From sequence record ON470579.1: 42,743 nucleotides of DNA. One strand, 5' to 3'. The notes under the pieces are model-generated. The model was given only the letters and a program-made list of their open reading frames with translations. It was not told where the DNA came from and did no database searches. Positions 12,367 to 42,743 of the stretch are shown piece by piece (positions within the stretch are counted from its first letter, which is position 1; the number at the start of each line of letters is the position of its first letter). The translations under genes were made by a program, and so were the position numbers. Source of the stretch: Escherichia phage vB_EcoM-606R2.

Positions 12367-14351
12367 TAACCCACCCTCACCTGATTACTTCGCATGACCT
12401 GAGCATTTGCAGACTGTTGCCGACGTGCAACCTCATTACCGACAGCGTGCGGATCTCCGCCACCGTAAATGTGGTAGGTATTTTGCTGGTTAACCTCTGT
12501 CACTTTGCCACTAATTCCCGCCACGGCAGCCTTATTAATCAGCTCTCGAGAATAGATATTTCTTCCATTCTCATGCTGGATAATGCTGCTCATCAATGCT
12601 GACATGGTTTGCGGATCGCTCATATTCAGGGCAGCCCGGGGATCCACTCCCAGTCGTTGCGATACAGCCCTGATATACGCTGTTGTGTTGTTATTATCAG
12701 ACGCAGGTGCCCAGGTAGAGATAATTTTCTCCACACTGTTTATTCCCCGTCCGGCGTACAGCATTAACTGACGAGCAAGAGCCCGTAATCCATCAAAGGC
12801 AGTTTCAAATCTGGCAAATCGCCCGCCCGGGCGTTCAAGAGAAGCCCCTGCCTGACCAGCAAAATTAAGGTTTCCCGGATTGTTATTCCGTTCTCCTCGT
12901 TTCGTAGCCTGTGCATATTGTTCCGGCTCAGCACCTGGAATATCTGACTGAATATTTGCGCCTTTTACGGTATGAGGATTACGACCAAAATCGGTATCAA
13001 TGCCAAGCCAGCGCAATGAATCTCCAATATTTTGTTTCGTGTAATCCCAGGATGACTTCGCACTGGCACCAATATTTTCGCGATCAGAGTACAAATACGC
13101 AGCATAAGCCATCCAGCCTTTTAACCACGGCGGGACCGGCAAACCTGATATTTTCCCGAAAGCCCCCAGAACCCTGGATACCCAGACACCCGCGATGAAT
13201 GTACCAAGGATTTCCAGTGCATTTTGCCAGCCGCCAACACCATCTTTTAGTTCCAGAAGGTGATCACGAAGCCAGGTGATCGCATCCTTCGCTTTATCTA
13301 TTGCCGGTTGCCATTTTTCCCAGTCGATAAGACTGTTACCGCCTTCTTTCCATGTTTTGTAGTCTTCCCACAAGAGACCGAGAGCCACGATCAGACCGGT
13401 AATCAGCCCTATAGGTGACATCCAGAAAGTAGAGTTAAGTATCCGCATGGCGACAACCAGACCGCCGATAACCTCTATCAGGGTTTTCGTTTCGGCATCC
13501 AGTTTCCCCCACCACTCGATGATATCTCCGACACCATCGACTATCCGAAATGCTACCCGCCCGACTATCTCACCCAGCCAGAGGATCCCCTTTATGACCT
13601 TTGTGATGGTGACTTCAATTTTGGGAAAATTTTCAATTATCTTTTTGCGCAGGTTATCAATCTGCCCCGCCAGTCCGTCCGCAAGATTCGATCCGATTTT
13701 GTCCCGCGCCATCCTGGCCATTTCACCGAGCGATTTCAGCGAGGTCATAAACCGGTTTGACGATAAGGCAGCCTGATCGGCATTAAATCCGATCGCTTTC
13801 ACCATTTCTGAATACTGAGCGCTGAACTGCCCCACTCCGCGACGCATAGCCATCAGGGTATTTTCGTCAATGCCCAGCATCTGCGCATACTGGTTAGCCC
13901 GGTAATACGGCATGCTGCTGAGTTTCTGTCCAACGCCCGTAAAGATAGCAGCCATGTCACGCATGTTACCGCTGGCATCACGGGTCTGTACGCCCAGGCG
14001 ATTCAGAAAGCCTTCTGCTCCGGGATTGTTACGAATAAACCGGGAGAGGCTTTCCAGAGAAGATCGCGCAGCGTCCACACTGCCGCCAACCTGCGAAACC
14101 GCATAGCCAATAGACTGAATTCCCTGGACCGTCGCGCCGGTGCGCTGTGACGCCCAGTAAAGATTATCCAGGCCGGAGGCGATCTTAGCCGTGAAGGCCA
14201 CCACGGACAGCGCAGCCCCTTCAACAGCCAGCCCCATTTTGATGACATTTGCAGTTGTACCGGCGAGGACAGAACCGAACTTTTTCGCTCCTGCATCATC
14301 CACACGGAAGCCAAGCGAGACGAGGAAATCTTTAATAGTTTCAGCGTTCAT
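12366..14351 (-). CDS. tail tape measure protein
   Basis: The largest tail ORF (track start is a TTG at 14372; likely start is the ATG at 14351 after GGAGAGAGG). The protein is helical and Ala/Gly-rich with central hydrophobic segments, and lies directly after the chaperone frameshift pair. Confidence 0.75.
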   Translation of the reverse strand: MNAETIKDFLVSLGFRVDDAGAKKFGSVLAGTTANVIKMGLAVEGAALSVVAFTAKIASGLDNLYWASQRTGATVQGIQSIGYAVSQVGGSVDAARSSLESLSRFIRNNPGAEGFLNRLGVQTRDASGNMRDMAAIFTGVGQKLSSMPYYRANQYAQMLGIDENTLMAMRRGVGQFSAQYSEMVKAIGFNADQAALSSNRFMTSLKSLGEMARMARDKIGSNLADGLAGQIDNLRKKIIENFPKIEVTITKVIKGILWLGEIVGRVAFRIVDGVGDIIEWWGKLDAETKTLIEVIGGLVVAMRILNSTFWMSPIGLITGLIVALGLLWEDYKTWKEGGNSLIDWEKWQPAIDKAKDAITWLRDHLLELKDGVGGWQNALEILGTFIAGVWVSRVLGAFGKISGLPVPPWLKGWMAYAAYLYSDRENIGASAKSSWDYTKQNIGDSLRWLGIDTDFGRNPHTVKGANIQSDIPGAEPEQYAQATKRGERNNNPGNLNFAGQAGASLERPGGRFARFETAFDGLRALARQLMLYAGRGINSVEKIISTWAPASDNNNTTAYIRAVSQRLGVDPRAALNMSDPQTMSALMSSIIQHENGRNIYSRELINKAAVAGISGKVTEVNQQNTYHIYGGGDPHAVGNEVARRQQSANAQVMRSNQVRVG

Positions 14352-14528
14352 TATCCTCTCTCCATTTCTCAATGCGTCGCTGGTTATCCGCTTTTACCGC
14401 CAGATGGTCATTCAAGAGAGCAATGTCATACAAATCGACAGAGCCATCTTTAAGTGCTGTATAAGGAATTAACCCGGCGTCAACCGGATTGAGAAGGTAG
14501 GACAGCCCGTCCGGCAGGCTGTTAAACG

Positions 14529-14981
14529 TCAGCCCTGTTGCAGGCTCTGCGTCGTGCTGGTAAGGGGTGTAGGCAAAAAATTTCCCAGCGAATCGGCGAC
14601 CACCCGCGCCACCAGCTGCAGCATGACCAGCAAGTCAATATCATCAAACATCAGTTCGCCCTGGGTAAATACCGGCACCCATCCGTCCATATGACGCCGC
14701 GATACCACCGCAAGACAGGGATGAATAATCGCATCGGTGTCATCTTCGGTCAGGGAAGACAGTTCCTCAGCGATACGCGGGAGCATGGTTTCAAACACCG
14801 GTTTTAACTGTTCGAATTTCACGGTGTCGATTTTGCCGTCAGCAGGCAAACGGGAGCGAATACTCCCGAAATCTGACATCATTCCTGCCAGCACCGGCAG
14901 AAGTTTGCGGGTCACTTTCAGCTGGTCAAAAACGCTGAGTTTTGCCGTGCGATATTTCACGCCTTTAATTTCGAATTCCAT
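14529..14981 (-). CDS. tail assembly chaperone (G-like), upstream partner of a -1 frameshift
   Basis: 150-aa ORF between the tail tube and tape measure genes. The slippery heptamer GGGAAAT lies 15 codons before its stop, and the -1 frame stays open to 14341. Confidence 0.6.
   Translation of the reverse strand: MEFEIKGVKYRTAKLSVFDQLKVTRKLLPVLAGMMSDFGSIRSRLPADGKIDTVKFEQLKPVFETMLPRIAEELSSLTEDDTDAIIHPCLAVVSRRHMDGWVPVFTQGELMFDDIDLLVMLQLVARVVADSLGNFLPTPLTSTTQSLQQG
14580..14586 (-). other. programmed -1 ribosomal frameshift site (slippery heptamer G GGA AAT)
   Basis: Canonical X XXY YYZ heptamer in the zero frame of the chaperone gene. The -1 frame downstream is open for about 80 codons and ends at a TGA overlapping the tape measure start. 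Confidence 0.6.
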
Positions 14982-14984
14982 GCA

Positions 14985-15425
14985 TTAAAACTCCCCGAGA
15001 ACCTGGTCAATCTTGCCGCAGTCAAACACCCACGGCATCGTATTACCGGTTTTAGCGTTGGCGTTATCCGGTTGTTTCTGGAACGCAACACTGCGTGCCG
15101 TGATGATGTCGCCGCTGACCTTGTTGCGGATAACGATAACGTTATTCCCCCATGTGGCAGAAGACTGGCTCTGTGCGTTATACGCCAGCGACAATTTTTT
15201 ATTTGTCGGTGATGTCTTCAGAAGGTTAACGGTAATCGTCCCGCTTTTATCTGCATGGAGGCTGTGCATCACTTCACCATCAGCACCGATGGTCATGGTG
15301 TTTTTAGGACCGCCCATCGCAACCACAATCCCCTCTTCAGAACTTGCCGAACCGTACCCGAGGTCAATCGAACCGGTCGGCCCGGTCAGCGTCGCAGTGA
15401 CATCCATAAAAGAATAGGTAGACAT
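14985..15425 (-). CDS. tail tube protein
   Basis: 146-aa ORF immediately downstream of the sheath gene. Confidence 0.6.
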   Translation of the reverse strand: MSTYSFMDVTATLTGPTGSIDLGYGSASSEEGIVVAMGGPKNTMTIGADGEVMHSLHADKSGTITVNLLKTSPTNKKLSLAYNAQSQSSATWGNNVIVIRNKVSGDIITARSVAFQKQPDNANAKTGNTMPWVFDCGKIDQVLGEF

Positions 15426-36017: not shown

Positions 36018-36038
36018 CCCTACTTCATAGACGCCCGG

Positions 36039-36057
36039 TTAAACACCGGGCTACTGA
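36039..36057. other. GC-rich stem-loop between convergent genes
   Basis: Inverted repeat GCCCGGT-TAAACA-CCGGGC; there is no clear U-tract on either strand. Confidence 0.4.
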
Positions 36058-36069
36058 TTAGGCGTATAA

Positions 36070-36699
36070 TCACTCAGGAATCTTAATCTTTCTCAATTCT
36101 TTATTTAGTTCACAGATCTTTTTCTTAGACGGGAAAGTATCATACATCCAAAAACCAACAGTCTCTAAAACTATTATCATAACCATATACACAAGATAAT
36201 TTAAAAGGCCTTCATTTTGCCCTATGGAAATAATGCAGATAATAGAAAAAAGGGTAAACAGCACAAAACACAGAAAGGAAAACAGACGACTAATAATAAA
36301 TAAAAAACCTGAAAAATCAACATTAATAAAAAACACTCCGTTATCTTTCTCTATATAATTCTGAAGCTTAATCAACTGATTTATATACTGTCTTTTTTCT
36401 AATCTATTGCAAATGTAAATAACATCTCTTCGGTTATAAGAGGATTGCAATTTCAGCGCATCACGAATAATTTTATCATTTATTCTTTTTTCTATGGCTT
36501 TCTTATCCTCCTTATCCAGATAACGTTCATACTTAATTAAATATAAAATTAACTTCTTGACATATTTAGGCTCTTTATACTTATAATTAAAAATGATCTT
36601 TCTTATCCAGACTCCCATAACAATCAAACATGAAAAAATATATCCAGCTATTTTCTCCAGATGCTCTGTATGGTCAATCAAGTATTGGATCATATGCAT
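36070..36699 (-). CDS. AT-rich integral membrane protein, antisense insertion in the replication module
   Basis: 209-aa ORF with one N-terminal and two or three C-terminal hydrophobic helices and a Lys/Tyr/Ile-rich composition; its GC content is markedly lower than the flanking genes. Confidence 0.6.
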   Translation of the reverse strand: MHMIQYLIDHTEHLEKIAGYIFSCLIVMGVWIRKIIFNYKYKEPKYVKKLILYLIKYERYLDKEDKKAIEKRINDKIIRDALKLQSSYNRRDVIYICNRLEKRQYINQLIKLQNYIEKDNGVFFINVDFSGFLFIISRLFSFLCFVLFTLFSIICIISIGQNEGLLNYLVYMVMIIVLETVGFWMYDTFPSKKKICELNKELRKIKIPE

Positions 36700-36745
36700 A
36701 ATTAATCTTTTAATCAGTTAATAGAATAAAAACCTAGGTAAACAC

Positions 36746-38809
36746 ATGTCCAATATACTATGGGGCGACCTGGAAACCTATTGCGAAATCCCTATTACGA
36801 ACGGTACCCATGCGTATGCCGAAGGCGTTGAAGTGATGCTTTTCGCATGGGCTATCAACGACGGGCCAGTAAACGTGTGGGATATCACTGCCGGTGGTGG
36901 TATTCCACACGGCTTATACGAAGCAATCGCAGACCCTGAAACCCTGCTTTATTTCCATAACTCTCACTTCGACCGCACCGTTCTGCGTTATGCAATGCCG
37001 CGACTGGCACCGCCAGTCGAACGTTGGCGCGACACGATGGTGCAGGCGCTGGCGCACGGTCTCCCGGGGTCTCTGGGGGAACTCTGCGAAGTACTAGGCG
37101 TCCCGCAAGACAAAGCGAAGGACAAAGAAGGTAAAGCGCTGATCCAGCTGTTCTGTAAGCCACGTCCGAAAAACAGCAAACTGCGTCGGGCCACCAGTAA
37201 AACCCATCCGGAAGAATGGCGGCGCTTTGTTGCTTACGCCGGACTGGATATCGAAGCAATGCGTGAAGTCTATAAACGTCTGCCGAAGTGGAATTATCAG
37301 GGGACAGAGCTGGCGCTCTGGCATCGTGATCAGCAGATCAACGACCGGGGCGTCTGCATGGACATGCAACTCGCGCGCGCTGCGATCGAAGCGGTAGACC
37401 AGGAGCAAAAGCGCCTGGCAAAGCGTACACAGGAAATGACTGATGGCGAAGTGCAGGCAGCCACACAACGGGACGCGTTGATTAAGCACATCGTTGAATC
37501 CTACGGTGTGGAGCTACCAGACATGCAACGCAGTACCCTGGAACGTCGTATGGCCGACCCCGATTTATCATCTGCCGTGAAAGAACTGCTGGCTATCCGC
37601 CTGCAAGCCAGTACTACCAGCACCAGTAAATACAAGGCACTGATGAAAGGCGTAAGCCACGACGGGCGCTTACGCGGTACGCTACAGTTCTGCGGGGCGT
37701 CACGTACCGGTCGTTGGGCCGGACGGCTATTCCAGCCCCAGAACCTTCCCCGCCCTTCACTAAAACAGGAACAAATAGACGAAGGCATCGAAGCACTGAA
37801 AGCCGGATGTGCAGACCTGCTGTTTGACAATATCATGGAACTAACCAGTTCAGCGTTACGTGGCTGCATTATCGCGCCAACAGGCAAAAAACTAGTGGTA
37901 AGTGACTTGTCAAACATTGAAGGCCGTATGCTGGCATGGCTGGCGGGAGAAGAATGGAAACTGAATGCATTCAGAGAGTATGACGCTGGAACGGGTCCGG
38001 ACTTATATAAACTGGCGTATGCAAAAGCTTTCGATATTGCACCAGATGATGTTGATAAACACATGCGTCAGATCGGTAAAGTCATGGAACTCGGTCTGGG
38101 TTATGGAGGTGGTGTATCGGCTTTCATCACTTTTGCTCTGGTTTACGGTCTCGATCTCGACGAGCTGGCGAACGCCGCACTGCCAAACATTCCCCGCGAT
38201 GTTATCCGCGAGGCAAAAAGCTGGTACGACGAATCGGTTAAGCGTAAGTCGACCTTTGGCCTGTCCGAGCGTGTATTCATCGCATGTGACTCGCTCAAGC
38301 GCCTGTGGCGCAGGGCGCACCCGGCGACCTGCGATTTCTGGTACGAGCTGGAGCGCACTGTCCGCACAGCAATCGCCACACCGCAAAAAACATTGTATTG
38401 CGGCTATCTTAAAATCCGACGTGATGGCGCGTGGCTGCGCATACAGCTACCATCCGGACGCGCTGTATGCTACCCGTCTCCGGTTATCGAACAAGGGAAT
38501 ATCACCTACATGGGTGTTAACTCTTATTCGCGTAAATGGCAACGACTCAAAACCTACGGCGGAAAGCTGGTGGAGAACGTCACCCAGGCGGCCGCCCGCG
38601 ACGTTCTAGCCAGAAACATGCCGCTGATCGAGGGTGCCGGTTACAGCATTGTGCTAACGGTACACGACGAGGTGATCACCGAAGCACCAGACACAGAAGA
38701 TTTCAACGATAAAGCGCTTTCCGCGCTTCTCTCCACTAACCCCGAATGGGCACCCGATATTCCGCTGAACGCTGGCGGCTTTGAGGCGTACCACTACAAA
38801 AAAGATTGA
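36746..38809 (+). CDS. DNA polymerase, family A, with 3'-5' exonuclease domain
   Basis: Exonuclease motif GDLET; polymerase motif A ([13 protein letters not shown]), motif B ([15 protein letters not shown]) and motif C (VHDE). Confidence 0.85.
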
Positions 38810-38873
38810 TATAACTCACCTTATCGAGCTATGGCGACATGCTGAATTCGAGTAAATTAAAGGAACAATACTT

Positions 38874-39635
38874 ATGCAGGAACTAACTGAAATGCCGATC
38901 AACTATCCATACCCGAGAGAATCTTTTCCTGACTTTTTGAGGGAGTGTGGGTTCACCAATTTTTCCCACGAACAGCGTGAGACTTATGACTGCTATCGTT
39001 TAACGAATGGCGTAATTGTTAACCTTTACACCACCCGGACCATTCAGTTTCAAGGGAACCCTCAAGAACGTCCCAATGTTGAAACTGCAATAATGTCCCA
39101 TTTAGGAACGCCCCCCACGGCAACACCACTAGCCGTAGAACAGCCATCTGAGCTTCCCAAAAAGATATTCATTGTTCACGGCCATGACCATACTGCAAAG
39201 GAACAACTTGAGCTAATCCTTCATAAACTTGGATTACCAGACCATTTCATTTTGCAGAATACGGGAGGGACTGGACTCACCATTATTGAAGAGCTTGAAC
39301 GTGAAATTGGGCAAGGACAAACTGCTACTCGTTTCGGGATTGTTCTTTTGACACCTGATGATATGGGATACTCAAAGCGCGCCGGTGAAGCAGAAATCCA
39401 ACCCCGCGCAAGACAGAACGTTGTACTCGAGATGGGTATGCTTCTTTCGTCCTTAGGGCGCAGCAATGTAGCAATCCTTCAGAAACAGCACCTAGAACAG
39501 CCTTCTGATGCTAACGGGATTTTGTATCTGAATTTCAACGACCATGTACGTGAAACAGTTCCTCGTCTAGTGCAACGGTTACAAAATTCTGGTTTCGAAT
39601 TTACACAAGCTCAAATAGCTAACGCTTCCTCGTAA
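38874..39635 (+). CDS. TIR-like domain protein (COG4271 / Cap12-type TIR-like fold) with an unknown N-terminal domain
   Basis: The C-terminal region has the pattern KIFIVHGHD ... FGIVLLTPDD ... RARQNVVLEMGMLL ... PSD, recalled as typical of the TIR-like nucleotide-binding family. Not confirmed by search. Confidence 0.55.
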   Translation: MQELTEMPINYPYPRESFPDFLRECGFTNFSHEQRETYDCYRLTNGVIVNLYTTRTIQFQGNPQERPNVETAIMSHLGTPPTATPLAVEQPSELPKKIFIVHGHDHTAKEQLELILHKLGLPDHFILQNTGGTGLTIIEELEREIGQGQTATRFGIVLLTPDDMGYSKRAGEAEIQPRARQNVVLEMGMLLSSLGRSNVAILQKQHLEQPSDANGILYLNFNDHVRETVPRLVQRLQNSGFEFTQAQIANASS

Positions 39636-39659
39636 TTACCCCCTTATTGTTGATTACAA

Positions 39660-39680
39660 CCCTGCATTGCGGGGTTTTTT
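39660..39680 (+). terminator. intrinsic terminator after the TIR-like gene
   Basis: Stem CCCTGC-ATT-GCGGGG followed by TTTTTT, 25 bp after the stop. Confidence 0.65.
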
Positions 39681-39870
39681 ATTTGGGAATAAAAACCCTA
39701 TGTCATTTAAATACCGGGACAGTCCGCTTTATTACCGGACTGCACGGGAGGCTTTGCGCCTTGAACAGTCCAGCGGGTACGACCGGGCGATGCAGGTCTG
39801 GGCCAAAGCGAACGTCGGTTTGATTTTTGTCTGATGCAGAACATGCGCGAAAAGCGTAAGGAGGTGGACG

Positions 39871-40065
39871 ATGTCTAATATCGATAATAAAGGTTGGGGG
39901 TTCCCCGCCCTGTCGAAAAAAGCACATTTCTTTAATTCGGGGGAAGCCATATCACTATGCGGAAAATGGATGTTCACAGGTATCAGGATTGACGAATGGC
40001 ATGACCATCCTGAGAACTGCGCTATCTGCATGAAGAAACGCAAAAAGCAGGAAGGCGAAAGCTAA
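39871..40065 (+). CDS. small Cys/His-rich protein (possible zinc ribbon)
   Basis: Strong ribosome-binding site AAGGAGG; stop overlaps the VRR-NUC start. Confidence 0.5.
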   Translation: MSNIDNKGWGFPALSKKAHFFNSGEAISLCGKWMFTGIRIDEWHDHPENCAICMKKRKKQEGES

Positions 40066-40349
40066 TGGCCTATGAACGTGAAAACCTAATCGAAAAGCAC
40101 CTCGTCGCTGAAGTAAAAAAGGCTGGCGGGGTTGCCTTTAAGTTCGTATCTCCCGGTCTCCGCTCGGTACCAGATCGCATTGTTCTGCTACCCGGCGGTC
40201 GCATCGTCTTTGTCGAATGCAAAGCACCAGGCAAACCACCACGACCTGATCAGTTGCGCGAGCATGAACGTCTGCGAAAACTGGGCTTTACCGTGGTAGT
40301 ACTGGATAGTAAGGAGCTTTCATGTATATTAGGCAAAAAATTACAATAG
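40065..40349 (+). CDS. VRR-NUC domain nuclease
   Basis: 94-aa ORF with the PDRIVLLPGGRIVFVECKAPG pattern characteristic of VRR-NUC as recalled. Confidence 0.65.
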   Translation: MAYERENLIEKHLVAEVKKAGGVAFKFVSPGLRSVPDRIVLLPGGRIVFVECKAPGKPPRPDQLREHERLRKLGFTVVVLDSKELSCILGKKLQ

Positions 40350-40364
40350 GAGTCTGTGTAAGCT

Positions 40365-40856
40365 ATGGCTAAGCAACAAACGAAAGAAATAAACCAAGAT
40401 GATGTAAAAGACAACAAAAATATGCCACCTCATATATGCGGCATTATTATGCCAATTGCGGACATAGAAGGTTATCCCACTGGACATTGGAGAAATGTTC
40501 ATGACATTATTTGTGAAGCATCAAATGATGCCGGATTCAAGGCAAATTTGGTAAGTTCAGATGATGATGTTGCAGTAATACAAAAACGAATTGTTCAAAA
40601 TCTTTATGAAAACCCCATAGTTGTTTGCGATATAAGTGCTCGAAACGCTAATGTAATGTTTGAATTAGGAATGCGTCTCGCATTTGACAAACCGACCGTA
40701 ATTATTAAGGACGAGCGCACTCCTTATAGCTTTGACATTTCATCAATTGAACATTTAGAGTACCCTTCGGATTTAAGATACCAATCAATCAATCAATTTA
40801 TTCAAAGAAAGACTTGCGAGCAAGATAAAAGAAACATATTTAAAGTCAGTAACTGA
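40365..40856 (+). CDS. TIR-like domain protein, N-terminal portion of a frameshift-split gene
   Basis: AT-rich ORF with the pattern PIVVCDISARNANVMFELGMRLAFDKPTVII ... PSD, parallel to the upstream TIR-like protein. The frame ends 19 codons after a (CAAT)4 tract. Confidence 0.55.
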   Translation: MAKQQTKEINQDDVKDNKNMPPHICGIIMPIADIEGYPTGHWRNVHDIICEASNDAGFKANLVSSDDDVAVIQKRIVQNLYENPIVVCDISARNANVMFELGMRLAFDKPTVIIKDERTPYSFDISSIEHLEYPSDLRYQSINQFIQRKTCEQDKRNIFKVSN

Positions 40857-41286
40857 TCCTGAATACACAACATTCCTCAAACATTTTGGCACTTTCAAAG
40901 TTGCACAACTAGACCAGAAAGAAGTATCAGAAACTGAGTATCTGGCATCTGAGATTAAAGATATCAAATCATTATTGATATCTCTTAGGGCAACAGCAAC
41001 GACAAAATCCAGATTTTTCGACTCACCGAAAAATTACTCGCAGCAGGAAATTGACAACTCTGTAGATATTATTAAAAATGGAGTTGCCAGTTATACTATA
41101 AGGAGTGAAGGATTTAGTATATCAAAATCAGCACTAGAAAAGTTACGCCAAAGACTACACAACGCAGGATTTCAAGTCGAGCAAATAGTATTGACAGGAA
41201 AAGAAGTAATTATTCATCTGTCATCACCTTTAATAAATGAAGAAGAAAATATTTTTAAAGATGCAATAGTAACAGCACTATTATAA
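40777..41286 (+). CDS. C-terminal portion of the frameshift-split gene (no ATG; open from 40777)
   Basis: A 170-codon open frame with protein-like composition. The track starts it at a TTG at 40975, but it reads continuously from the repeat tract. Confidence 0.5.
   Translation, partial: DTNQSINLFKERLASKIKETYLKSVTDPEYTTFLKHFGTFKVAQLDQKEVSETEYLASEIKDIKSLLISLRATATTKSRFFDSPKNYSQQEIDNSVDIIKNGVASYTIRSEGFSISKSALEKLRQRLHNAGFQVEQIVLTGKEVIIHLSSPLINEEENIFKDAIVTALL
40782..40797 (+). repeat. tetranucleotide repeat (CAAT)4 at the frame-switch point
   Basis: Read directly from the sequence. The +1 frame opens at 40777 and the zero frame closes at 40856. Confidence 0.9.
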
Positions 41287-41298
41287 ATAACATTTTTA

Positions 41299-41334
41299 AA
41301 ACAACAAAAGGTCTAAATTGGCCTTTTGTTGTTT
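41299..41334 (+). other. 13-bp-stem hairpin bounding the AT-rich cassette (possible terminator)
   Basis: Arms AAACAACAAAAGG and CCTTTTGTTGTTT with a 10-nt loop, immediately before the helicase ribosome-binding site. Confidence 0.4.
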
Positions 41335-41348
41335 AGGAGCCATATTAT

Positions 41349-42743
41349 ATGCCCCCAAAATATATACCTCGCCCCTACCAAGTTCTCATTATCAACCACG
41401 AAACCGAAACCCTGCGCGGCAACATCTGGGCGGGGATGGGAATGGGTAAAACCGTGGCAACGCTCACTGCGCTGGAAGATCTCTTTATGGCAGGGGCAGA
41501 AACATGCCCCGCACTGGTCCTCGCGCCGCTGCGCGTGGCTGCCAGCACATGGCCGGATGAAGCACTGAAGTGGGGACATTTGCGCAATATCGAGGTGCAG
41601 CCAATTATTGGTAATGCCAAAGCGCGCTCTATGGCGCTGACGAACAGCAACGCAAGCGTGTTCACCATCAACTACGATAACCTTGTCTGGCTGATTGAAG
41701 AATTGGGAGAACGATGGCCGTTCGGTACTGTCATTCCAGATGAAAGCACCCGGCTAAAATCCTTCCGGCTGCGCGGTGGTGGTAAGCGCGCGGCGGCGCT
41801 GGGCAAAGTGGCGCATAAGTATGTCCGGCGCTGGATAAATCTCACCGGTACGCCAGCACCGAACGGCCTGGTAGATTTGTGGGGACAATCGTGGTTTGTG
41901 GACCAGGGGCAACGTCTCGGGCGCACTTACGGCGCGTTTACCTCACGCTGGTTCAACTCGATACAGTTTCCGGGGCAGAGCTGGACCAAACTGGAGCCTT
42001 TTGCTCACTCACAGGGTGAAATACAGCGAGCGTTAGCCGATGTAACCCTCTCGCTGGATGCGGCCGACTGGTTCGATATCAAAGACCCCATCCATAACGT
42101 AATCCGCGTGGATATGCCACCGAAGGCCCGTCAGCAGTATCGTGAAATGGAAAAGGAAATGTTCCTCGAGCTGAATGGCGAAGGCATCGAAGCACCGAAC
42201 GCCGCGGCAAAGACACTGAAGTGTCTGCAAATCGCCAGCGGCGCAGTATACACAGATGACACCGGAAGTTGGTCAGAACTGCATGACACCAAACTACAGG
42301 CGCTGGACAGCATACTGACCGAAGCAGCTGGCGCACCTGTGCTGGTTGCTTATCACTGGAAACACGATCTTGAACGCTTGCTTAAAGCATTCCCTCGCGG
42401 TCGTCACCTCGACCAGGATCCACAGACACTGCGCGACTGGAATTCCGGAAAGATTCCTGTTCTCTTTGCACACCCAGCCAGCGCGGGCCACGGCCTGAAC
42501 ATGCAGGACGGCGGAAATATACTGGTATTTTTCTCACACTGGTGGGACCTGGAGCAATATCAGCAAATTATTGAACGTATCGGCCCCACCAGGCAGATAC
42601 AGGCCGGACACAATCGTCCGGTATTTATTCACCACATTATTGCTGCCGACACTATGGATGAAATGGTGATGGAGCGGCGCAACTCAAAACGAACAGTGCA
42701 GGACATCCTGCTCGATGCCATGAAAAAGAGAGGTATAGCATGA
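41349..42743 (+). CDS. SNF2/DEAD-like DNA helicase
   Basis: Motif I GMGKT, a PRPYQ-type Q motif, motif II DEST and C-terminal helicase motifs; ribosome-binding site AGGAG. Confidence 0.75.
   Translation: MPPKYIPRPYQVLIINHETETLRGNIWAGMGMGKTVATLTALEDLFMAGAETCPALVLAPLRVAASTWPDEALKWGHLRNIEVQPIIGNAKARSMALTNSNASVFTINYDNLVWLIEELGERWPFGTVIPDESTRLKSFRLRGGGKRAAALGKVAHKYVRRWINLTGTPAPNGLVDLWGQSWFVDQGQRLGRTYGAFTSRWFNSIQFPGQSWTKLEPFAHSQGEIQRALADVTLSLDAADWFDIKDPIHNVIRVDMPPKARQQYREMEKEMFLELNGEGIEAPNAAAKTLKCLQIASGAVYTDDTGSWSELHDTKLQALDSILTEAAGAPVLVAYHWKHDLERLLKAFPRGRHLDQDPQTLRDWNSGKIPVLFAHPASAGHGLNMQDGGNILVFFSHWWDLEQYQQIIERIGPTRQIQAGHNRPVFIHHIIAADTMDEMVMERRNSKRTVQDILLDAMKKRGIA

Follow-up and report, generated by a model that had tools for sequence, protein, structure and literature searches.

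Two variable cargo genes with TIR and TIR/NDT-like domains in the replication operon of Escherichia phage vB_EcoM-606R2

The sequence record of Escherichia phage vB_EcoM-606R2 (ON470579.1; 42,743 nucleotides, the whole of which is called the window here) carries two unusual genes within an otherwise conserved replication operon of this temperate phage: gene A, which encodes an intact protein with a TIR domain, and gene B, which is broken by a frameshift in this copy and whose core resembles both TIR domains and enzymes of the nucleoside 2-deoxyribosyltransferase (NDT) type. An earlier note on this DNA had described them as two paralogous TIR-like proteins forming one candidate prophage defence locus. 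On the basis of current results, we favor on balance a different view, namely that A and B are two independent single-gene cargo cassettes ('morons') that occupy different slots and encode effector-type defence proteins. A role in defence is plausible for both. The features of the two cassettes are as follows.

38810-39698, no strand: slot-1 insert, 889 bp, GC content 0.441, between the DNA polymerase stop codon and the ANR gene (blastn)
38874-39635, plus strand: gene A, intact open reading frame (ORF) of 253 amino acids, member of PADLOC PDC-S35
38895-39107, plus strand: N-terminal domain of gene A, amino acids 8-78, TBP-like according to predicted topology and family matches
39162-39539, plus strand: TIR domain of gene A, amino acids 97-222, assigned to the Cap12/PycTIR class (PF10137, E 2.9e-31)
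39658-39686, plus strand: hairpin closing cassette 1, intrinsic-terminator-like, with a T-run (stem 39658-39676)
40313-41366, no strand: slot-2 insert, 1054 bp, GC content 0.340, flanked by VRR-NUC (3' end) and by the helicase gene (blastn)
40365-40856, plus strand: 5' part of gene B as read in the window, ORF for a truncated product of 163 amino acids including an out-of-frame tail of 21 amino acids
40431-40769, plus strand: TIR/NDT-like core of gene B, amino acids 23-135, with the codon of the invariant Glu100 at 40662-40664
40782-40797, plus strand: (CAAT)4 tract, shifts the reading frame at codon 143 (as aligned with phages 611R5 and 689R2)
40786-41286, plus strand: 3' part of gene B in the +1 frame, amino acids 143-305 of the intact protein (helical segment and C-terminal alpha/beta domain), frame open to the stop
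41299-41334, plus strand: hairpin closing cassette 2, a perfect 13-nt inverted repeat with a 10-nt loop, just upstream of the helicase ribosome-binding site

Cargo status and independence of genes A and B

The replication operon lies on the plus strand (35.4-42.7 kb of the window) and contains genes for a DUF2815/Enc34 single-stranded DNA (ssDNA)-binding protein, a family A DNA polymerase, an ANR-family small regulator, a 64-amino-acid protein, a VRR-NUC nuclease and an SNF2 helicase. Insert boundaries were set by blastn against two related prophages (L004 and L005). Conservation of the backbone ends at 38809, the polymerase stop codon, and resumes at 39699; it ends again at 40312 and resumes near 41367. 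The GC content is 0.441 in the slot-1 insert and 0.340 in the slot-2 insert, as against 0.541 in the polymerase gene and 0.546 in the helicase gene. Each insert consists of one gene and one hairpin of its own. In the first hairpin, 5 of the 8 stem pairs are GC, and TTTTATTT follows the stem (-13.4 kcal/mol, z -2.6). The inverted repeat of the second is more stable (-20.8 kcal/mol, z -4.75), and none of 200 shuffled sequences folded equally well. Thus, two claims of the earlier note, that AT-rich insertions interrupt a conserved operon and that each cassette ends in its own hairpin, agree with the exact boundaries, the contrast in GC content and the two structures identified here.

We examined 139 complete E. 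coli genomes with a related prophage backbone. Both genes were present in 24 of them, gene A alone in 13 and neither in approximately 102, so that 37 genomes carry A and 24 carry B. In other prophages, slot 1 is occupied by a phage antirepressor (Ant) gene, and slot 2 by Arc/Arc/Rha regulators or by a reverse-strand gene of 265 amino acids; this alternative cargo further supports a cargo status of A and B. Genes A and B are therefore variable cargo with anomalous composition; they are not conserved core genes lacking any compositional anomaly, a possibility that the earlier note itself had raised against its reading. Both cassettes resemble phage morons in that they are inserted precisely between conserved backbone genes, deviate in GC content, end in a terminator-like hairpin of their own and vary in presence among sister prophages.

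The two proteins share a short signature, which was correctly recognized before and can be read directly from the sequence: a hydrophobic strand followed by NVxxExG and PSD motifs (...PRARQNVVLEMG...EQPSD in A and ...ISARNANVMFELG...EYPSD in B). The swapped domain order was also confirmed. The TIR domain of A follows a domain of about 85 amino acids, and the core of B precedes about 170 amino acids. However, the term 'paralogous' was an interpretation rather than an observation, and paralogy was rejected in this study: profile-profile comparison with hhalign aligned only 32 columns of A and B with a probability of 14.5%, and BLASTP found only short motif matches. We also rejected the idea that A and B form one system. 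When loci holding homologs of one gene were searched for the other by tblastn, no co-occurrence within 8 kb was found elsewhere, and in the 13 genomes mentioned above A occurs without B, which speaks against a single defence locus. The proposed locus (38874-41340) does contain two real genes, but it also takes in three backbone genes between them, namely the ANR remnant, the 64-amino-acid gene and VRR-NUC. Considering that the likeness is restricted to motifs, that the genes do not travel together and that backbone genes separate them, A and B represent two independent acquisitions.

A faint similarity was also seen between the C-terminal domain of B (amino acids 253-283) and amino acids 14-44 and 226-245 of A (hhalign probability 24% over 31 columns; BLASTP E 0.01 over 20 residues). 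It probably reflects a generic helix-GF-strand pattern and is too weak to interpret.

Gene A: a TIR protein with a TBP-like N-terminal domain

Profile matches place gene A as a new member of the listed candidate family PDC-S35, already annotated as a TIR protein. It matched the PADLOC model PDLC05003 with an E-value of 1.2e-108 (residues 10-253 on profile positions 3-245 of 245) and phrog_16442 with an E-value of 7.5e-107, and an identical protein was found on at least 1000 contigs. The PDC families are 145 phage defence candidates, proposed on the basis of genes that lie within BREX, DISARM or type I restriction-modification (RM) loci (Payne et al., bioRxiv 10.1101/2024.01.29.577857). Like PDC-S35, of which it is a full-length match, gene A is a single stand-alone gene, and we observed no difference between them at the sequence level. 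A literature search on PDC-S35, on the name of the phage and on tested integron cassettes resembling gene B found no direct report.

Sequence profiles and the structure model both indicate that gene A carries a true TIR domain of the Cap12/PycTIR class with a catalytic-type glutamate, E186 (codon 39429-39431). This residue, an HGHD motif and the PSD motif (amino acids 210-212) were invariant in 60 homologs. When the family profile was compared with sequences in the PDB, Cap12 (7un8 and 9lmq, E 3e-4) and PycTIR (8jsj, E 6e-3) were matched; QNVVLEMG of gene A was aligned to NVVFEFG/NVHLEFG of Cap12/PycTIR, and PSD to P(S/T)D. The best Foldseek match of the model was 9lmq, a TIR-STING structure. 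Thus, for gene A both the designation as TIR-like, with its strong PF10137 match, and the comparison with TIR and Cap12-like folds suggested by the earlier note came out as expected; the case of gene B is different, as described below.

The N-terminal part of about 85 amino acids may be interpreted as TBP-like, of the kind found in RnlA and RNase HIII, on matches that are individually weak but concordant. Its model has a beta-alpha-beta4-alpha topology with a predicted local distance difference test (pLDDT) score of about 90. RnlA_toxin (PF15935) was matched by 13 of 60 family members (best E 8.5e-4) and DUF3378 (PF11858), the N-domain of RNase HIII, by 4 of the 60. Against PDB sequences, the domain profile matched LsoA (E 0.055) and RNase HIII (E 0.057) via a common TGTxQxQGK motif. 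Gene A thus resembles RnlA/LsoA and RNase HIII in this strand motif and in topology, whereas the matches to them are weak (E 1e-3 to 6e-2) and, in place of their HEPN RNase or RNase H, a TIR domain would be its effector. The TBP-like domain of RNase HIII binds RNA:DNA hybrids (PMC3710099). The reading of the PDC-S35 N-terminal domain as TBP-like is an addition of the present analysis. A variable, flexible linker joins this domain to the TIR domain.

The relationship of gene A to CBASS, Pycsar and Thoeris was also investigated. It shares with Cap12 of CBASS a PF10137-type TIR domain with the conserved glutamate; unlike Cap12 and PycTIR, it lacks a STING or cNMP-binding domain, and neither a CD-NTase nor a cyclase is encoded close by. 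With NF050171, the NCBIfam equivalog model for Cap12, gene A scored 34.8 bits, as against a cut-off of 450, and the match covered the TIR part only. The PADLOC PycTIR model was likewise matched by the TIR part alone (E 1e-8, profile positions 188-272 of 288). No STING, cNMP-binding or SAVED domain was matched in gene A. Scanning of the flanking genes and the other uncharacterised proteins of the window revealed no CD-NTase, cyclase or ThsA gene, and the ThsA/ThsB models had no match in A, B or the neighbouring genes. These results place gene A outside the three systems, so the earlier suggestion that the arrangement fits none of Thoeris, CBASS or Pycsar held up, with neither a partner gene nor an equivalog-level match. 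By analogy, gene A would work like a Cap12/PycTIR effector yet appears to belong to none of these systems.

What gene A might do beyond its domain identities is suggested by how Cap12 and PycTIR effectors work. Since neither a second-messenger domain nor a partner is present, the sensor would read infection directly, and no cyclic-nucleotide second messenger would be involved. We infer that the TBP-like domain may sense a cue of infection, such as an RNA:DNA hybrid, another replication intermediate or a phage protein, upon which the TIR domain would self-associate and hydrolyze NAD+, leading to abortive infection.

Homologs of gene A elsewhere are stand-alone genes, one of which lies in an integrative element of V. 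cholerae. The homolog in Vreelandella adjoins a DUF4062 gene, a reverse transcriptase gene and toxin-antitoxin pairs.

Gene B: a widespread family and a frameshifted allele

Homologs of gene B are numerous: a word-indexed search gave 4466 matches, and with E <= 1e-30 an exhaustive search gave 1391 clusters at 50% identity. Members come from Proteobacteria, Bacteroidota, Verrucomicrobiota, Acidobacteriota and Firmicutes, and their carriers include prophages, integrative islands and integron cassettes. Pfam, NCBIfam and PADLOC contain no model dedicated to the family. Over the first ~200 amino acids, identity is 50-66% among members from Proteobacteria, Bacteroidota, Verrucomicrobiota, Acidobacteriota and a Ruminococcus, and the last ~90 are hypervariable and cannot be aligned across the family. 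The structure model of the intact protein (mean pLDDT 74) consists of three parts, namely a beta-alpha Rossmann-like core (23-135), a conserved helical segment (139-210) and a compact beta-beta-alpha-beta-beta-alpha domain (231-300, pLDDT about 90). A search for homologs of the C-terminal domain alone returned nothing.

The identity of the core was examined by sequence and by structure. Foldseek favored NDT and DNPH1 (probability 1.0) and also found the Cap12 TIR domain and MilB. The Pfam model for NDT, PF05014, gave sub-threshold matches in 69 of 76 family members (best E 0.0035; 13-15 bits, as against a gathering cut-off of 28.8), and PF10137 did so in 23 of the 76, with E-values of 0.01-0.03 for gene B itself. 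A PADLOC model for CBASS TIR effectors matched five divergent members (8e-8 to 8e-6), and searches of PDB sequences with gene B, both single and as a profile, gave no meaningful match. TIR domains and N-glycosidases of the deoxyribosyltransferase type both place the catalytic glutamate after strand 4, and the invariant E100 of gene B is found at this position. Thus, gene B appears to be like NDT, DNPH1 and MilB in its predicted fold and in the glutamate after strand 4, and different from them in that all its sequence scores are below threshold. Taken together, sequence and model suggest that its core lies between TIR domains and deoxyribosyltransferase-type N-glycosidases. The term 'TIR-like' is therefore only half right for gene B, which is as close to NDT/DNPH1 as to TIR; the structure comparison likewise returned NDT and DNPH1 foremost, with the Cap12 TIR domain in addition.

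Two known defence systems are informative for comparison. The NDT-like effector of retron Ec86 defends by depleting nucleoside derivatives, so the fold that gene B appears to resemble is known to serve as a defence effector. However, gene B has no reverse transcriptase or noncoding RNA partner as in a retron, and the PADLOC retron effector models miss it. Evangelion/Eva01 has a DUF4062 TIR-like core with a putative catalytic glutamate and a divergent C-terminal region; with it, NAD+ drops on infection, and the infection is abortive (bioRxiv 10.64898/2026.06.25.731849). Gene B also has a conserved N-terminal TIR-like core with a glutamate and a divergent C terminus, and it is likewise mobile and a single gene. 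On the other hand, none of the 76 family members matched DUF4062 (PF13271) at E <= 1, and gene B contains a conserved helical segment in addition, while its C-terminal domain is longer (~90 amino acids). In our comparison, Evangelion/Eva01 appears to be the closest tested analogue of gene B in layout. Gene B could act as an effector-plus-sensor protein of this kind, in which an N-glycosidase core with E100 would cleave NAD+ or a nucleotide and the variable C-terminal domain would set the specificity of the trigger. We tentatively propose, as a possibility for which the evidence of a defence role is circumstantial, that gene B is the founding example of a widespread, unnamed single-gene anti-phage family whose TIR/NDT-intermediate core is switched on by a swappable hypervariable C-terminal sensor.

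The copy of gene B in the window is a truncated or null allele produced by a +CAAT slip. The (CAAT)4 tract is the only tetranucleotide run of at least 4 units in the window. Phages 611R5 and 689R2 and all 24 full-length matches in E. coli have (CAAT)3, are 4 nt shorter and encode an intact protein of 305 amino acids. Removal of one CAAT unit restores the reading frame here, and the 3' part is identical to the intact protein of phage 611R5. The 4-unit allele is real but rare: the exact 163-amino-acid product was found on 7 contigs, as against at least 1000 for the intact protein. The tract encodes YQSIN, part of the family-wide motif DLRYQSINxFK, and is a by-product of coding this conserved sequence. 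It was suggested earlier that the repeat might be a phase switch. However, only 3 or 4 units were observed across all alleles, with 3 in 24 of 24 complete genomes, and neither a long tract nor two-way variation was detected. Phase variation is therefore not supported, and together with the YQSIN coding and other breaks of the gene these data lead us to read the change as a slippage null allele. Such breaks include an IS1 insertion near codon 40-47 in E. coli JNEC-KY203 (L026, 2066-3760) and a separate split elsewhere in E. coli into fragments of 40 and 244 amino acids. The proteins concerned in these breaks are P0243, P0245 and P0247.

The genomic context of gene B homologs varies considerably. 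In Klebsiella lambdoid prophages, the homolog sits in a slot for accessory genes, with the replication genes on one side and the NinB/Q genes on the other. A protein with a PF24729 Acb2/Tad1 hairpin is encoded ~6 kb downstream of it in the same prophages (L006-L009, about 14156-15130); Acb2/Tad1 is a family of anti-CBASS/anti-Thoeris sponges. Other homologs lie at the edge of a small integrative island of Pseudomonas and, in V. parahaemolyticus (L019, 7849-8893), in a chromosomal integron cassette flanked by attC-like repeats. These 71-nt repeats belong to a 24-copy family, and a BstA_C cassette is found 4 kb from the homolog. In Providencia alcalifaciens (L027, 5876-10702), an Enc34/DUF2815 ssDNA-binding gene is located 3.6 kb upstream of the homolog, which indicates that the same type of replication module carries gene B in another genus. 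At least 159 viral contigs in IMG/VR also contain the gene.

We further analyzed 285 ORFs within ~4 kb of gene B in 41 diverse genomes. An all-against-all BLAST of these neighbours revealed no conserved partner gene. Strong defence neighbours were scattered (AbiU, a type II RM pair, AriAB, PD-T4-6 and PDC-S05) and are compatible with a defence role of gene B, although they are no proof of it. Recurrent mad3, mad8 and AriA neighbours turned out on inspection to be ordinary ABC-transporter ATPases. The PADLOC models mad3, mad8, AriA and HEC-02A cross-match such ATPases with E-values of 1e-10 to 1e-59 (L030:6192-7070, L041:14497-15213, L072:10881-12533 and L056:8752-10410).

Alternative roles and the surrounding prophage region

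Several alternative explanations should be weighed against a role of A and B as defence cargo. One is that both genes serve the phage, as TIR/NDT-like hydrolases that are expressed with the early replication operon and destroy host immune signals (isomers of cyclic ADP-ribose (cADPR), cyclic nucleotides) or rewire NAD and nucleotide pools during lytic growth. Their position within the operon with no promoter signal above chance, the viral contigs carrying gene B, its fold near DNPH1, MilB and NDT, a DUF4406 (NDT-like) gene that adjoins VRR-NUC in a sister prophage and the Acb2/Tad1-like gene of Klebsiella prophages would all fit such a role. We nevertheless consider it unlikely, because the TIR domain of A is of the class whose members act as cell-killing effectors in CBASS and Pycsar, PDC-S35 was defined from genes within bacterial BREX, DISARM or RM loci, and in non-phage islands homologs of A have DUF4062, reverse transcriptase and toxin-antitoxin genes as neighbours. 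Gene B, too, has been found alone at chromosomal sites and in the form of an integron cassette, and a hypervariable C terminus would be unexpected in a signal-degrading enzyme with a fixed substrate. The latter feature also argues against a more modest alternative, in which gene B is an ordinary nucleotide-metabolism enzyme (deoxynucleotide N-hydrolase or deoxyribosyltransferase) of the replication module with no role in conflict, leaving A as the only defence candidate. Although NDT and DNPH1 are the folds favored by Foldseek, gene B lies between a nuclease and a helicase gene, and nucleotide-related genes (Nmad5 and DUF4406) are present in the same module of related prophages, a housekeeping enzyme would hardly be expected to be missing from 115 of the 139 related prophages, to have a GC content of 0.34 between flanks of 0.54 or to occur outside phages as an integron cassette and island cargo. 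The widespread PF05014 matches that favor this alternative fall far under the cut-off, and we regard it as improbable.

It is very improbable that A and B are paralogs in one two-gene defence locus in which CAAT acts as a reversible phase-variation switch of the second gene. The common signature, the shared operon, the existence of the 4-unit allele on several contigs and the restoration of the frame by loss of one unit were the grounds for this idea, but the profile comparison of A and B extends over only 32 columns, gene A occurs without B and their homologs are not found together elsewhere, and three backbone genes intervene. The uniform 3-unit state of complete genomes and the coding role of the tract are also at odds with a switch, and inactivation of gene B by IS1 and other breaks points to plain loss of function. 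Such losses might instead suggest that A and B are selfish or decaying cargo, that is, prophage-stabilising addiction toxins or remnants that at present serve no function in this host. Gene B has been broken independently by the CAAT slip, by IS1 and by another split, the ANR gene is a pseudogene in every gene-A-carrying prophage inspected, and no partner antitoxin is evident. On the other hand, the intact form of each gene occurs on at least 1000 contigs, and both show signs of strong purifying selection, with many invariant positions in the TIR domain of A and a core of B that is highly conserved across phyla. We give this explanation a low probability.

The view that A and B are independent defence cassettes also faces difficulties of its own, which we consider to count against it. 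The TIR domain of gene A was modeled with moderate confidence (pLDDT 55-80), and all sequence matches of gene B to TIR and NDT models remained below curated thresholds. Most neighbours of gene B in the 41 genomes were unrelated housekeeping genes, and the ABC-transporter cross-matches inflated the number of apparent defence genes in its neighbourhood, so that the association with defence islands is weak. The repeated inactivation of gene B in E. coli fits a costly or toxic gene, and it fits a dispensable gene equally well. In contrast with typical morons, neither cassette has a promoter of its own detectable above chance: a sigma-70 scan gave 11 sites, as against 9.5 expected by chance, with none upstream of gene A. 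In addition, gene B starts 15 nt after the end of VRR-NUC. Expression of both genes may thus be restricted to the lytic phase, as part of the replication operon, and not extend to the lysogen.

If A and B are nevertheless independent defence cassettes, gene A would represent a TIR NADase wired to a TBP-like sensor of nucleic acid or protein, and thus a form of TIR immunity that operates without a second messenger, with RNA:DNA hybrids or replication intermediates as a possible trigger. Gene B would add a large and phylogenetically broad family to the single-protein effector-sensor defences, and it would help to define the border between TIR NADases and deoxyribosyltransferase-like nucleotide hydrolases. 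It should be noted that gene A was already annotated as a TIR protein and listed as a candidate, and that the copy of gene B examined here is a dead allele.

The window is nearly identical to phage vB_EcoM-611R5 (42,739 bp), and a matching prophage is present in many E. coli chromosomes. By comparison with ON470588, positions 1-2254 are host chromosome (tadA, pgpC and a yfhH-like regulator). At the opposite end, the window stops at the helicase stop codon (42743), before an integrase is reached. The 'phage genome' is therefore a prophage region and not a packaged genome. Rfam and tRNA scans of the window gave no matches. The backbone genes between the two cassettes are as follows.

39700-39834, plus strand: truncated ANR-family regulator, 44 amino acids as against ~72 in the intact form (NF033650, E 3.5e-7)
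39871-40065, plus strand: gene for 64 amino acids, phrog_2358, conserved in related prophages
40065-40349, plus strand: VRR-NUC/PD-(D/E)XK nuclease (PF08774, E 0.0021; RefSeq annotation in related prophages)

The ANR gene lacks ~40 nt compared with that of the related prophage L005 and of prophages devoid of gene A, and RefSeq marks it as 'frameshifted' in every gene-A-carrying prophage inspected. Counting a further variable site upstream, this common E. coli prophage family has three places in its replication operon where cargo can be exchanged, and these should be useful for finding further cargo. The third cassette (36018-36745), between the ssDNA-binding gene and the polymerase gene, is even more AT-rich (GC content 0.30). 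Its gene (36070-36699, minus strand; phrog_10579) encodes a hydrophobic, possibly membrane, protein of 209 amino acids, and different genes are found in this slot in sister prophages.

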